The position numbers and the translations under genes are program-made. Shown one piece after another: positions 2,113 through 8,241 of a stretch of DNA of 13,576 nt. Position 1 is the first letter of the stretch. Each line of letters begins with the position of its first letter. The notes under the pieces are model-generated. The model did no database searches and was not told where the DNA came from. It worked only from the letters and a program-made list of their open reading frames with translations. The DNA comes from Candidatus Hermodarchaeota archaeon (GTDB taxonomy: Archaea > Asgardarchaeota > Hermodarchaeia > Hermodarchaeales > Hermodarchaeaceae), in contig JAEOUH010000014.1 of assembly GCA_016839365.1 (NCBI GenBank), positions 1 through 13,576 of the forward strand, in the 5' to 3' direction.

Positions 2113-2661
2113 ATGTCACACGATGCATTTGATTACCTCTTCAAAGTGGTTCTCGTTGGTGACGCTGAAGTCGGTAAAACCAGTCTCACGACACGCTTCG
2201 CCTATGGTACTTTTACCGATGGCTATATTTCAACTCTCGGCGTTGATTTCATTGTTAAATCCCTACCCCTAAGCAATTATATCGTTAAGCTCCAAGCTTG
2301 GGATACAGCAGGGCAAGAGCGGTACGCAGGAGTTCGGCCTATTTACTATCGAGGTGCGAGAGGAGCTCTTTTGGTCTTTGATATCACGGTGCGACAAAGC
2401 TTTGTAAATGTCGATAAATGGTTAGAGCAAATTCACAAATTTTCAGGTCCAGATGTGCCGATCATCCTGGTAGGGAATAAAATTGACCTGCTTGAATCCA
2501 GGGTCGTTACCTCTGATGAGCTGCGTGTCTATGCATCTCAAAAAGGAATGCAATATTTTGAAACCAGTGCGAAAACCGATTATGGCGTCAATGAAGTCTT
2601 TCATAAGCTCGCAGAACTTATTCTCGCTTACGAACTTGCCAAAGAAGGGTCACAGGAATAG
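2113..2661 (+). CDS. Rab-like small GTPase (Ras superfamily)
   Basis: G1 GDAEVGKT, G2 Thr in YISTLGVDF, G3 WDTAGQE, G4 NKID, G5 ETSAK. Rab-family motifs LGVDF, KLQAW, YYRGA and LVFDIT, plus N-terminal FDYLFKVVLVG. No Cys, so no prenylation site. Confidence 0.96.
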   Translation: MSHDAFDYLFKVVLVGDAEVGKTSLTTRFAYGTFTDGYISTLGVDFIVKSLPLSNYIVKLQAWDTAGQERYAGVRPIYYRGARGALLVFDITVRQSFVNVDKWLEQIHKFSGPDVPIILVGNKIDLLESRVVTSDELRVYASQKGMQYFETSAKTDYGVNEVFHKLAELILAYELAKEGSQE

Positions 2662-2699
2662 CAGGGACCATACGCCATTAATGCCCAGGTCGAAGTGTG

Positions 2700-3908
2700 A
2701 TGAATGAGAATGCTTCAGATTCGAGAATTCAAACACCAAGACTAATCTGGGAACTTCTCGGGCAATATCTAACACTAAGCGAAAAATATGATAAACGAAC
2801 CAAAGTAATCGAAGAACACGCGAATCAACGTCTTATCCGGTATTTTCAAGAAAAATCCCCTGAGCTTAAACATCATTTAGTAGATACAAATGCGTTAATC
2901 GGATACATTGACGAATATGTAGATTATTTGTTGATTTATTACGCATATTATCGGAGCGTTCGTCGGGGTATGGAAACGCTCTTTGCATCAATCGGTATAA
3001 CCGACCACCGCATGTTCGCTGAAATGGTACGTGCAACCAGTGATCCACGGGTGAAAATTCAGATCAATGATTTAGACCAAAAGGGTGTAGATTGGTTTCT
3101 TCGTCAGTTTCTCGATGAATTTCAAGCCGTAGAACGCCATATAAAGCGGCTAGGTGACTACCTTCCAAAATTGAGGGAAGCCGTGGAACAAACCTACAGT
3201 GAAAGCATGCAACGTTTTTGTGATGTACTCCAATATGCGACATCAGATGAATCGAAACAGCTTCGAATAGACGGATATGCAAAAGTGGAAACAGCATTAG
3301 AGAATGAAGATTTGAGCAAAAAGGTGAACCATGTAGTAGAAGCGGTTGACTTCTTTGTCAGGGATGCACAGAACCATCCTACATTCATTCTTACCGAGTC
3401 AACAGGATATTTTGGTGCAGCAGAACTGGAAGAGTTTGACCAAAAGATTACTTCCTTCAAGAGTGTTCATGAACTCTTTAAGGAGCATGTCAGCCTTTCG
3501 AATCGTACCCGCTGGATCTATGAACGCCATCACACCACCTTATTTTCAAGTATCTTTGAAGGCTCGCACTTGGAATTACTAGAGATGCGGGACAGAATAA
3601 GCAGGGGGGAGCCATTGAAGACTTATGAGTCGCACATCCGGGATTGTCAGGGTATGCTCCTCGGCGTTTCTCAAGCGTATTCCCTGTTTTTAGAGTATAG
3701 TGCTTATTCCCAACAGATGCTAACTTTGGTTGATGCATATAGGGAAATTGCTAATTTCCTTCAAAGTGAGTTAGTTCAAATTTTGTATACCATGGAATTG
3801 CAACGGAACCATTTGTACCTTGAAGTCCGTGATGACTTCCGACAAACTTTAGACAAGTTCCAGCAAACCCTCTTGGAAGTCTGTTCCCTAAACACTACAG
3901 AAAATTAG
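2700..3908 (+). CDS. hypothetical all-alpha-helical (helical bundle/rod) protein, 402 aa
   Basis: Long ORF 38 bp after the GTPase stop, with AGGT at 2687-2690 before ATG 2700 (GTG 2697 is an alternative start). Amphipathic E/L/Q/R-rich helices, few Pro or Gly, no TM segment, no recognisable enzyme motif. Confidence 0.85.
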   Translation: MNENASDSRIQTPRLIWELLGQYLTLSEKYDKRTKVIEEHANQRLIRYFQEKSPELKHHLVDTNALIGYIDEYVDYLLIYYAYYRSVRRGMETLFASIGITDHRMFAEMVRATSDPRVKIQINDLDQKGVDWFLRQFLDEFQAVERHIKRLGDYLPKLREAVEQTYSESMQRFCDVLQYATSDESKQLRIDGYAKVETALENEDLSKKVNHVVEAVDFFVRDAQNHPTFILTESTGYFGAAELEEFDQKITSFKSVHELFKEHVSLSNRTRWIYERHHTTLFSSIFEGSHLELLEMRDRISRGEPLKTYESHIRDCQGMLLGVSQAYSLFLEYSAYSQQMLTLVDAYREIANFLQSELVQILYTMELQRNHLYLEVRDDFRQTLDKFQQTLLEVCSLNTTEN

Positions 3909-3966: not shown

Positions 3967-3981
3967 TAAAAACCTTTTTAG
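3967..3981 (+). promoter_or_regulatory. putative BRE/TATA promoter (AAAAACCTTTTTAG) for the sensor-receiver pair
   Basis: A-rich BRE-like run followed by TTTTTA about 25 bp before TTG 4006. Confidence 0.5.
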
Positions 3982-4005
3982 CTTGAGATTCGTTCCTCTT
4001 TTCTA

Positions 4006-6045
4006 TTGTTTTGGTCTGGAAGTGCGGGTGTGGTGTTAGAAAAGCTTCAAAGCAGTCGCTGGTTTCGAAGCTATAACCAAAAACTCGTTGCAATCGCGAC
4101 ACCAATTGCATTCCTTCTCTCAGTGCTTCCACTTGTCATCGGATTCTTCGCACCCCAAATTGCGGGGGTCTATCTGATTAGCGCATACATTGTTGTTTTT
4201 TTGACGGTTTTTGGAGTATGCCTAGCTCTGCGAGGGTTTCATAATCAGACTGCTAGACGATTGGTCTTCATTGTTGCCGGGGCGAGTTTCGTAGGTGCCT
4301 TGGCTCATTACTGGCTTCTGATTGAAACCGTCTTTTTTGGCTTTCCCATCATATACCCCAATGTCTCTGCCTACATTGCTGTCACAGCAAATCTGATTCT
4401 ACTCGTGGGATTCATATTGGTCTCAGTTGAACAACGTAGACGGTCCAGGCGGCAAATTACCGGTTATATGCTGATTACCTTATTCTTTGCGGCTTGTATT
4501 TTATCGACTTATCAAATGAATCTCATTTTTGAACCACCAGTCCTTCCAGCAATTGGAACCGGTGTGCGAATACTTCTTGGTTTCTTTACTGCAATCTTTG
4601 CCTGGGCTTTTTACTTCAACACAGATCCATCCCAAGAGGTCATTAGCCGATTCAGTCGTATAATGCTAGTAATTTCTAGTCTTTTTCTCATCCTTGGCTA
4701 TACTGCTTTCGCTTATCAATATGCCATGAGCTGGCAGGCTGTCTCGGTTTTCTATTATGCTGGCTCGCTATCAGATTCTTTCACGCTCTTCGCCATCTTC
4801 TTCTTTCTCATTTCAGTATTGACTATTTTTGGTAAAACTCTCGAGGATATGGCCACCATTCGTCCTATATCTGTGAAATACGAAGGTATCACTCGGGTTA
4901 TCTTAATTCTCTCTTTACTCGTGGTGATGACACTCATCGCCACCATAACGATTTTTTTGACTAGTCGTGTGCTTCTGGTTTTTTTGAGCCCGATTGATGC
5001 CATGATCGCGTTACAGGCTATTGGCATCGGGTTACTCATAGGATTCATCATAGTTGGGCTAATAGTTGGGGGAATTGGGTACTTCCTTGCCCGGTTGATA
5101 TATCAGCCTTTAGAACAACTTGAAATAGAAACCAGTGCGGTCACAGAGCCAGGATTGATTTCTTATCAAGAGCCGGTTGGTTTAGTTTTCACAGAACTTC
5201 AGGGAATTTCGGATAGTTTCACAAACATCCTTACTGAATTAAGTCGTGTGCGTGCAGAGTTACGCCGATTCACAGTTGTTGAAAGACGTCCTCTAACTCC
5301 TTCAAAATCCCAGCTAGTCAAACTCGACTATTATTTGGGTGTACTCAACAACACGATCACAAGTGGGCTGCAATCTATTCTAAGTCTCACTGAAATTGGG
5401 CAGGGCACATCCAATCCAGAGGAACGATTGGAGGCCTTGAACCTGATCCACTCCGAAATACAAGAAATTCAATATATGCTCAGAAGCGTCCAATTGCTGC
5501 GACTCATCGATATTCAGGCATTGCCTGAGCTTAGCCGAATCGATTTGAGGTCTGTGATTACTCAGATCATTAATGAACTACACACGCTCTTCCCTGAATC
5601 CGCAAGTCAAATCTCACTTTCCCTTCCCAGTAATGCGGCATTCGTATTAGTGAATGAGTACGTTACGCAAATCTTTCAGCCCCTCTTCCGGTTAGTCTTG
5701 ACTCAAGGGGGTGGGGGTTCGTCCACTATAGATGTAACCTTCTCAAATGTCACTGAGTTAGGAACCGATTTTTGGCAGGTAGATATCTCCCACCCAAAAT
5801 GGGTGCTCTCTGATCTTGAAAAAGTCCTTTTATTCCGAGAAGACATTGAACAGCCACAAAAAGCAAATCCCAACCTCCTTCTGGTTCCTGCCTTAATCGA
5901 ATACTATCGTGGCAAATTCAGGGTTACAAATATCGTACTCGATGATCCACAGTATGGGACCCTACTACAAGTGTTACTTCCCAAGGCGAAACTACCCCGA
6001 GTTCGCACACAACGCAAGTCTAGGAAGAAATCAGGAGCTGACTGA
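4006..6045 (+). CDS. multi-pass membrane sensor with HAMP-like, DHp-like and HATPase-like domains; degenerate (pseudo) histidine kinase
   Basis: About 10 hydrophobic segments, then HAMP-like IYQPLEQL...ELQGISDSFTNIL, DHp-like VLNNTITSGLQSILSLTE, IDLRSVITQII and a C-terminal LIEYYRGKFRV...GTLLQVLLPKA typical of HATPase ends. H, N, G1 and G2 boxes are not conserved. The start may instead be GTG 4030 or 4033. Confidence 0.85.
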   Translation: MFWSGSAGVVLEKLQSSRWFRSYNQKLVAIATPIAFLLSVLPLVIGFFAPQIAGVYLISAYIVVFLTVFGVCLALRGFHNQTARRLVFIVAGASFVGALAHYWLLIETVFFGFPIIYPNVSAYIAVTANLILLVGFILVSVEQRRRSRRQITGYMLITLFFAACILSTYQMNLIFEPPVLPAIGTGVRILLGFFTAIFAWAFYFNTDPSQEVISRFSRIMLVISSLFLILGYTAFAYQYAMSWQAVSVFYYAGSLSDSFTLFAIFFFLISVLTIFGKTLEDMATIRPISVKYEGITRVILILSLLVVMTLIATITIFLTSRVLLVFLSPIDAMIALQAIGIGLLIGFIIVGLIVGGIGYFLARLIYQPLEQLEIETSAVTEPGLISYQEPVGLVFTELQGISDSFTNILTELSRVRAELRRFTVVERRPLTPSKSQLVKLDYYLGVLNNTITSGLQSILSLTEIGQGTSNPEERLEALNLIHSEIQEIQYMLRSVQLLRLIDIQALPELSRIDLRSVITQIINELHTLFPESASQISLSLPSNAAFVLVNEYVTQIFQPLFRLVLTQGGGGSSTIDVTFSNVTELGTDFWQVDISHPKWVLSDLEKVLLFREDIEQPQKANPNLLLVPALIEYYRGKFRVTNIVLDDPQYGTLLQVLLPKAKLPRVRTQRKSRKKSGAD

Positions 6046-6046
6046 C

Positions 6047-6403
6047 TTGGCCAGGGCTGTGATGATCATTACTCCTCATGAGTCATTAAGCCGATCAATT
6101 GCGAAGCTAATTACTCAAGCAGGATTTGATGTTTGTCCTGGTGTGGATAACTTGGGAGGTTTTCGCCATGCATTAAATGCGGCTGAAACGCCTCCAAATG
6201 TACTCCTCGTCGATTATTGGTTAAGTCGGGCACAAACCATCGATTTCATCAAGAGCCTGAAACGTCAACGGTTTGTTGTGATTCTAATGGGAACACATTT
6301 TCTTGGTAAAGATGTGGCGGCCGCAGAGGGGATTGGATTCCTCGAGAAACCATTCACTAAAAGCGACCTTGTAAAAGCCATTGCTTCCGCGAAACAGAAA
6401 TAA
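6047..6403 (+). CDS. stand-alone atypical response-regulator receiver (CheY-like) domain, 118 aa
   Basis: TTG start 1 bp after the sensor stop, with SD AGGAG at 6033-6037. Receiver pattern PNVLLVDYWL (Asp kept) and FLEKPF (Lys kept), but beta-1 ends IITPH instead of the acidic DD/ED pair. Confidence 0.85.
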   Translation: MARAVMIITPHESLSRSIAKLITQAGFDVCPGVDNLGGFRHALNAAETPPNVLLVDYWLSRAQTIDFIKSLKRQRFVVILMGTHFLGKDVAAAEGIGFLEKPFTKSDLVKAIASAKQK

Positions 6404-6406
6404 CGT

Positions 6407-7246
6407 TTACACAGGTACAAGATTACGTTCGCTGGATGAGGTCACGTGGAGCGCTTTTCCAGCAATGGGTCCATGATACTCTCGGCAGGAGAATAGACTA
6501 ATAATTCGTCCGTCAAAGTATTCATGAAATCCATGAGGGAAAACCTCATGGGCTCGAACAATGAGATCCAACTTATTTTTGGCCATGAATTCTTCTGTGA
6601 TATCCTGGCCAAAGGTTCGTATTCGATCTCCTCGCATTGATGATCCAAAACCTTTCACAGTTTCCCTTGGGTCATTCCAAAGCAGCTGAAATGTAATTGG
6701 ATTAACGGGCTCAATTTCCATGGGTAGCGAATCTATATCCTGCACCTCTTTTAGTGTTTCAGGGATCCCCCCATGCACGGCGAATATTTTATGCTGAACG
6801 CTAATTGCGGCTAGGGGTAGATCCCTGAAAACCTTCCAATAATGTGTGATCACATCACCTAAAGAGAGTTGAACTCTGTCAAAGAACCCGTAGGCGCGAT
6901 TTATACTCGGAGTTTCATGGTTCCCCCGCAAAAGCATCAATCGATTCGGAGCTTCGGTCTTCAGATATAGAAGCAAATTAATGTTTTCAATTTGGAAGGA
7001 TCCACGATCGACATAATCCCCAAGGAATACAAAAATCGTTGGTGTGTGCCAATACTTTGTCAGCAGTCGTTGGGTCGACTCCCAGTCACCATGGGTATCC
7101 CCAACGAAGAGTAGTGGCTTATTCGGAAGTTTGAGTAATCGGGGTTCCTGGTGTAGTAATGGTTGAACTCGCTCTAGGAGCTGTAACACTTCTTCAACGG
7201 AGTATTCCTGTACAATCTTCACCGCTTCTGAAATCATTGTGGCCAA
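6407..7246 (-). CDS. PPP-family Ser/Thr protein phosphatase (PP1/PP2A-like metallophosphoesterase)
   Basis: GDTHG, GDYVDRG, LRGNHE, VHGG, LLWNDP and IVRAHE motifs. Start is TTG 7246 or ATG 7237. Confidence 0.95.
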   Translation of the reverse strand: MATMISEAVKIVQEYSVEEVLQLLERVQPLLHQEPRLLKLPNKPLLFVGDTHGDWESTQRLLTKYWHTPTIFVFLGDYVDRGSFQIENINLLLYLKTEAPNRLMLLRGNHETPSINRAYGFFDRVQLSLGDVITHYWKVFRDLPLAAISVQHKIFAVHGGIPETLKEVQDIDSLPMEIEPVNPITFQLLWNDPRETVKGFGSSMRGDRIRTFGQDITEEFMAKNKLDLIVRAHEVFPHGFHEYFDGRIISLFSCREYHGPIAGKALHVTSSSERNLVPV

Positions 7247-7302
7247 ATTCCGCGCCTAGTGTATCTGATTTTAGGGGTTGAATGTTTTTTAGAAGAAATT
7301 AA

Positions 7303-8241
7303 CTATTTTACGACTATATGAGTACCAGCCTTGCCAAGAATTGCTCGGGCGATGTTTTCAGGAGAAGTAATGATGGCAAATTCGCCCCCCTCCTCAAGGA
7401 ATTGAATGACGGATTCGATCTTCGGAGCCATGGATCCAGGGGCAAAGTGTCCCTCTTTCAGGTACTGTTTTGCCTCCTTGACAGTCATTCGATCGATTGG
7501 GCGTTGATCCGGTTTACCAAAGTTCAGGTACACCTTGTCAATCGACGTCGAGATGAGAAATCCCTTCGCACCCAACGCCTTACAAAGCAATGCTGAAGCT
7601 CGATCCTTGTCAATCACCGCGGCCACTCCTTTCAAAATCCCATCCTCTTGCACCACTGGAATACCTCCACCCCCTACTGTAATAACAATGAATCCGTCGT
7701 CAAGCAGGTTATCCACAACCTGTGCTTCAATAATTTTTTTCGGAATTGGTGATGGAACCACACGGCGCCATCCTCTTCCCGCGTCTTCAACAACGTGCCA
7801 GCCCTCTTCGATACGGCGTTCCGCCATATCTTGATCCATGAAAGAGCCAATGGGCTTATTGGGGTGGGTGAAGGCAGGGTCGCTGGCATCCACTAGGACT
7901 TGTGTAACGACAGTTACGGGTAGTTTGTCCATTTTGCGTCTACGAAATTCGCTCAGAAGAATTTGCTGAAGCATATACCCAATCGCCCCTTGTGTGTCAG
8001 CGCCACAAAAATCAAGGGGAACCTCATGGAGTTCACCAGCAGCCAACTCGGAGCGCCGAAGAATAAATCCCACTTGGGGCCCGTTGCCATGGGTGATTGC
8101 GACATCCCATCCCTGTTCCACCAAGTCAACAATGTGGGGAACGGTTTCTGCTGCAGCTGCGTATTGGTCTGGCACAGTTTTACGTGCTGCGTCCTTAATG
8201 AGGGAATTTCCCCCAATGGCAACAACAATTCGCTTAGCCAT
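7303..8241 (-). CDS. arcC: carbamate kinase
   Basis: VVAIGGNSL, THGNGPQVG, TQGAIGY, PNKPIG, GWRRVVPSP, GGGGIPV, AVIDKD and GSMAPK motifs. Confidence 0.96.
   Translation of the reverse strand: MAKRIVVAIGGNSLIKDAARKTVPDQYAAAAETVPHIVDLVEQGWDVAITHGNGPQVGFILRRSELAAGELHEVPLDFCGADTQGAIGYMLQQILLSEFRRRKMDKLPVTVVTQVLVDASDPAFTHPNKPIGSFMDQDMAERRIEEGWHVVEDAGRGWRRVVPSPIPKKIIEAQVVDNLLDDGFIVITVGGGGIPVVQEDGILKGVAAVIDKDRASALLCKALGAKGFLISTSIDKVYLNFGKPDQRPIDRMTVKEAKQYLKEGHFAPGSMAPKIESVIQFLEEGGEFAIITSPENIARAILGKAGTHIVVK

Follow-up and report, generated by a model that had tools for sequence, protein, structure and literature searches.

The Rab-like GTPase gene and its transcription unit

This locus raises the question of whether a soluble helical protein, encoded directly behind a Rab-like GTPase gene, acts as a partner of this GTPase or is co-transcribed with it for another reason. 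Asgard archaea possess dozens of Rab-like GTPases, which are rarely paired with partners in the layout of the genome (PMC10933270). The window, i.e. the whole stretch of 13,576 nucleotides that was analysed, is contig C48 of a 2.2-Mb MAG of Candidatus Hermodarchaeota archaeon.

The GTPase gene (positions 2113 to 2661, + strand) encodes a Rab1-like small GTPase of 182 amino acids (Pfam Ras, E 1e-56), and its closest relatives in the PDB are Rab1 and Rab35 (E 1e-53 to 1e-45). The boxes G1 to G5 are intact (GDAEVGKT, T41, DTAGQ including the catalytic Gln, NKID and SAK). Of the motifs RabF1 to F5, LGVDF, KLQAW, YYRGA and LVFDIT were found, and F3 is diverged (RYAGVR). The C-terminus extends about 12 residues past helix 5. 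The geranylgeranylated C-terminal cysteines which eukaryotic Rab proteins bear on a hypervariable tail are absent, and none of the 19 Rab orthologs contains a single Cys; the protein thus lacks a prenylation site. This paralog is specific for Hermodarchaeia, its best matches in the other lineages bearing the P402 family being 42–54% identical. The known class of Asgard Rab-like proteins gains a new member in this GTPase, which shares the Ras-family fold, Rab-type motifs, intact G-boxes and the absence of C-terminal prenylation cysteines with Thor-Rab (PMC10933270), and differs from it in being Hermodarchaeia-specific and in having a fixed downstream partner gene.

According to the initial annotation, the GTPase gene lies 38 bp from the gene of an all-helical, soluble protein, both share an upstream TATA-like element, and a separate promoter at about position 3975 bounds the unit. 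These features were recovered. The second gene (2700 to 3908, + strand) encodes P402, which comprises 402 amino acids from the ATG, or 403 if translation starts from the GTG at 2697, and the spacer between both genes (2662 to 2699, +) measures exactly 38 nt. The TATA-like box TTTAAGTGA is located before the Rab gene (2056 to 2064, +); it has only 16 copies genome-wide, and its core TTAAGTGA is unchanged in all 15 aligned orthologous regions, which stem from two genera and include the genome G013. No conserved promoter-like motif occurs across the orthologous Rab-P402 spacers (about 17–42 nt). TTTTTAGC, a TATA-like element belonging to the next gene (3975 to 3982, +), was found again before the orthologs of that gene (4006–6045) in four genomes (G007, G014, G012 and G005). 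Because the promoter motif is conserved and the spacer is short and free of motifs, it is a fair inference that Rab and P402 form one two-gene transcript starting from the TATA box at 2056. The RNA data consist of a single contig of 205 nt within P402 from one metatranscriptome, which does not reach the Rab-P402 junction. A sigma-70 promoter scan was set aside, as it is inapplicable to archaeal promoters.

P402 is an internally duplicated helical protein

The description of P402 as an all-helical and soluble protein stood. The AF2 model (pLDDT 87.6, pTM 0.77) is helical apart from isolated bridges, the highest 19-residue hydropathy is 0.75 without any hydrophobic segment, and the protein is acidic with a net charge of -17. 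Two linked four-helix bundles are a better description of the model than the term "rod", which had also been applied. P402 is a tandem duplication of a unit of about 195 amino acids, with repeats at about residues 10–203 and 204–402. When one half of the family alignment is matched to the other, HHalign gives a probability of 96.9% (E 2e-10, 177 columns), and a kink of the Ser-Pro type is conserved in each half of P402, located at S167 and S356, respectively. The model of a distant family member (pLDDT 87.7) exhibits the same two-fold helix pattern. Structural matches to P402 span either residues ~60–245 or the joined N- and C-termini, and these aligned ranges imply that the predicted fold consists of two four-helix bundles with a swapped first helix.

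Purifying selection acts on the gene, with a dN/dS of about 0.07 versus the nearest ortholog. Across genera, P402 diverges faster than Rab (41–43% versus 63–67% identity). Within clade A of the family, to which P402 belongs, R269, Q136, Q325, Q339 and Q388 are invariant. No catalytic constellation is conserved throughout the family, in which only structural residues, the Leu-x-Ser-Pro kinks, are kept. An apparent frameshift of P402 in genome G006 was rejected, as it is an N-run of the assembly.

Searches for related folds yielded only general likeness. With two independent family models, Foldseek gave no match in the PDB at E ≤ 0.001, and structure searches of the Atlas with the family models remained below a TM of 0.5. 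The wide and second-look searches with VIA retrieved only generic four-helix bundles (best Z 10.8–11.8), mostly designed proteins, and no CATCHR, BAR, spectrin, TBC, Vps9, ALIX-V or CHAD chain was among the best 50 VIA matches; on these results a relationship to the latter folds is possible. The Pfam, NCBIfam and PDB searches did not specifically assign P402 to the TBC GAPs, Vps9 GEFs or DENN GEFs. The likeness to CATCHR, BAR, TBC or Vps9 proteins that had initially been suggested was thus unconfirmed. P402 was likewise matched to no unrelated enzyme fold by Foldseek, VIA or profile searches, and a profile match to UvrD (E 0.002) was gone when a broader alignment was used.

The only near full-length match with both models was the ligand-binding domain of the chemoreceptor McpZ (PDB 8f7n), a multi-module helical bundle (Z 8.6–10.1, 260–273 residues aligned, Foldseek E 0.04, rmsd 8–9 Å, TM about 0.2). 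P402 possesses neither a transmembrane nor a signalling domain, and the likeness probably reflects a common arrangement only. Helical Rab effectors and tethers, such as CATCHR subunits, Fy-2 of the FERRY complex and BAR proteins, are soluble helical-bundle proteins like P402. The FERRY chain reached a VIA Z of 8.5–8.7 over about 170 residues, which is the background level of helical bundles, and P402 is distinguished from all of these proteins by its internal two-fold repeat and by the lack of a detectable sequence link.

Linkage of Rab and P402 across genomes

An ortholog of the Rab gene is present in 15 of the 19 genomes containing the family. In 13 of these 15 Hermodarchaeia genomes Rab is directly followed by P402, and the same adjacency occurs in four more divergent metagenomic loci. 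The synteny check proposed in the initial annotation thus yielded a conserved linkage, with two qualifications: conservation extends over a whole block, and P402 is missing in two genomes. The block consists of a longin-like gene, two small ORFs, an AAA-wHTH gene, Rab and P402, followed by an M28 peptidase gene at some loci and by genes for a membrane protein, a phosphatase and a carbamate kinase-like protein. Since the whole block is syntenic, the adjacency of Rab and P402 is not specific. In the rearranged genome G013, the TATA box, Rab and P402 have stayed together, with the AAA gene on another contig, in front of a different gene. The AAA+/winged-helix ATPase gene (836 to 1996, +; matches to Pfam AAA_22 and HTH) is thus separable from the Rab unit.

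In G005 and G011, Rab, its promoter and its neighbours are kept, and P402 is cleanly missing. Because some lineages lose P402, Rab is most likely independent of it. Both losses may represent a single event (AU p 0.23). The switch regions of Rab are almost invariant among the orthologs. Residue 72 in switch II is Ala in all 17 P402-linked Rab proteins and Ser in both P402-less ones (G005 and G011). As the two losses possibly go back to one event, this split is a weak lead on the linkage with P402.

The longin-like gene lies four genes upstream of Rab, across a contig break (G000:C61:16632-17678, L173; ortholog at L025:4185-5231). It encodes 349 amino acids with a longin-like N-terminus and has no Pfam match; three paralogs occur in the genome. 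Longin domains represent the usual class of GEFs, and, judged from its sequence, the protein is a candidate GEF for Rab.

A Roadblock-Rab-DENN operon has been described from Asgard archaea (10.1101/2020.10.19.343400). In both cases, a small GTPase and a putative partner share a conserved unit. P402, in contrast, is a duplicated helical bundle and no roadblock, longin or DENN protein, and the longin-like gene is located further upstream in the block.

The P402 family and its GTPase neighbours

Asgard archaea possess an unnamed family of paralogs, of which P402 represents clade A. A profile search first reached three distant relatives; the iterated search detected the family in all 18 other Hermodarchaeia genomes and in three other Asgard families, f7 (5/5), f22 (6/6) and f10 (1/1). 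In about 370 further Asgard genomes searched, no convincing member turned up. Each genome contains two to five copies, the genome of the window three, among them the paralogs B and C at C44:12518-13747 and C45:92229-93401. No description of this helical family was found in the literature search, and both the family as such and the duplication within it appear to be new.

In the tree, the Hermodarchaeia members form the clades A (window), D, E, C, F and B, of which those linked to a GTPase (A, D and E) branch off deepest. Members of clade D are located downstream of a GTPase gene on the same strand, either directly (L079) or with one EamA transporter gene in between (L067, L072, L074, L076 and L106). 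Clade E1 lies behind a gene for a GTPase of 377–380 amino acids, directly at L113 and with a V4R gene in between at L065. At L109, the member of clade E2 follows a longin-linked GTPase with intact motifs after a gap of ~25 nt. At L066 there is a divergent adjacent GTPase gene. The GTPases neighbouring clades D and E1 are sisters (97/88) and do not group with the Rab of the window.

No GTPase neighbour was found for clades C and F, most of B, P0039, P0040/P0042 and L038, nor at any of the nine family loci outside Hermodarchaeia. For the enrichment count, clade A was left out, and a same-strand GTPase gene within two genes upstream was scored at about 21 independent loci. Three of the 21 loci had such a GTPase against a background of 1.8% (p 0.006, or p 0.05 if D and E1 are counted as one event), and about 17 of the 21 had no GTPase nearby. 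The enrichment is modest, the test being post hoc and many of the contigs short. That clade D and its GTPase are absent together was discarded as a signal: the clade D block was not found in six genomes, G000 included, and it is the whole block that is missing from those assemblies.

Some further observations were made at the family loci. Family genes occur in tandem arrays of two or three (L083:6472-10380, L156, L158, L091 and L065), indicating ongoing duplication, mostly outside Hermodarchaeia. The GTPases upstream of clades D and E1 include conserved pseudo-GTPases with degenerate G3, G4 and G5 boxes (L067:7743-8321 and L113:5314-6444). Besides, the block of clade D holds a second EF-2 paralog, a TPR gene and an MFS gene (L067, L072, L074, L076 and L079). 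The V4R-domain gene at L065:5218-5757, which belongs to a superfamily related to TRAPPC3, is located between the GTPase and two family genes. A Cys-rich protein of 495 amino acids with a weak match to Vps23_core (E 7e-4) is encoded directly upstream of a family member at L107:4931-6415. At a single locus, P0039 (gene 6582-7820, JGI 3300042731) is immediately followed by two Snf7 (ESCRT-III) genes of the same orientation.

Possible functions of P402

The proposal that P402 belongs to a class of GTPase partners is partly borne out. The conserved linkage, the Rab promoter, the absence of a match to an enzyme fold and the three other GTPase-linked loci speak for it; the block-wide synteny, the Rab genomes without P402 and the predominance of paralogs without a GTPase speak against it. 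Because most family members have no adjoining GTPase, Rab and P402 are an unproven GTPase-partner pair, and the claim of a Rab effector is likewise unproven.

It comes close to an even chance that P402 is a passenger, namely a copy of a mobile, lineage-expanded helical family which has stood behind the Rab promoter since early Hermodarchaeia and shares the transcript of the GTPase but does not bind it. Its own, GTPase-independent job might be that of a cytoskeletal or scaffold protein or of a carrier of small ligands or lipids. Consistent with this, most paralogs lie amid unrelated metabolic genes (DUF362, acyl-CoA synthetase, urocanase and metallo-beta-lactamase), often in tandem arrays, P402 was lost cleanly in two genomes, and long-range synteny accounts for its conserved adjacency to Rab. 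Furthermore, small GTPase genes of another Asgard genome are generally not found in operons with regulators (PMC10933270). On the other hand, three further family loci lie behind other GTPases, above the background rate, and the Rab-P402 unit outlived the rearrangement in G013. A passenger role is marginally likelier than any single partner mechanism, and the partner mechanisms combined are about as likely.

Among the latter, we tentatively hypothesise that P402 is a co-transcribed accessory adaptor which binds the switch surface of Rab in a GTP-dependent manner. Both genes would form a transcription unit that starts from the TATA box at 2056, and P402, with its predicted fold of a pseudo-symmetric double four-helix bundle, would serve as a non-enzymatic scaffold and, within the GTPase system, as an accessory adaptor or effector. 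GTP-loaded Rab might dock via switch I/II onto the conserved mid-helices of P402 (residues ~80–135, 260–280 and 315–345), and the two bundles could bridge to a second partner. Rab itself would not depend on P402, in agreement with the loss of the latter in some lineages. That P402 binds the Rab GTPase directly is rather doubtful. In the prediction of a complex of Rab, GTP/Mg and P402, an ipSAE of 0.00 was obtained twice, which carries no weight either way. Still more speculative, and unlikely on balance, is that the whole family forms a class of effectors or adaptors dedicated to small GTPases, and that this class was co-duplicated with, or repeatedly recruited to, different Rab-like GTPases and pseudo-GTPases of Hermodarchaeia.

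If such a dedicated class existed, it would be the first prokaryotic Rab partner known that is neither a longin nor a roadblock protein, and binding of P402 to Rab would mean that helical-bundle effectors were at work before eukaryotes. The conserved two-gene unit, the sister pairs and the genomes that naturally lost the partner as controls allow a concrete and cheap binding test. Regardless of binding, P402 stands for an Asgard protein family that is new and lineage-expanded, and whose fold is internally duplicated and has no specific match in the PDB.

Membrane remodelling or tethering by P402, as a relative of BAR, CATCHR or dynein-tail bundles, is very unlikely. The features of P402 in the ESM Atlas resemble the tail of the dynein heavy chain (0.95), yet the recognition score of 1378 is below the mark of 2300, and the dynein-tail likeness was rejected when it was not repeated with a second family member. 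A match to COG6_N (E 0.016) covers only 34 amino acids and is below the cut-off, the F-BAR proteins retrieved by Foldseek have E values of 0.15 or worse and a TM of 0.19 or less, and one paralog lies upstream of the Snf7 genes mentioned above. Against this stand the overall acidic character of P402, which may nonetheless have a basic face like that with which BAR proteins bind membranes, the lack of a hydrophobic segment and a helix pattern that forms an internal two-fold repeat in which the long helices are swapped. No pointer specific to membrane remodelling was obtained, and this part of the initial annotation is not supported.

Least probable is a role of P402 as catalytic regulator (GAP or GEF) or GDI-like chaperone of Rab: the low intrinsic activity of Asgard Rab proteins, which probably need regulators (PMC10933270), and the invariant Arg and Gln residues of clade A, which could act as fingers, are outweighed by family-wide conservation that is limited to structural kinks, by the tolerance of Rab to the loss of P402, and by the longin-like gene upstream on C61, which is the better candidate and makes such a role less likely.

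Flanking genes of the window

Upstream of Rab, two small coupled ORFs (67 and 93 amino acids, no family) and the AAA+/winged-helix ATPase gene occupy positions 279–1996, in an order that is strongly conserved in all Hermodarchaeia loci examined. Downstream of P402, positions 4006–6403 encode a membrane protein of 679 amino acids with a degenerate histidine-kinase-like tail and a receiver-like ORF of ~117 amino acids (about 6047–6403, +); the orthologs of both genes at L189 match HATPase_c and Response_reg. At L032, the ortholog of the 679-aa membrane protein gene and the M28 peptidase gene in front of it are fused into one gene encoding 1396 amino acids.
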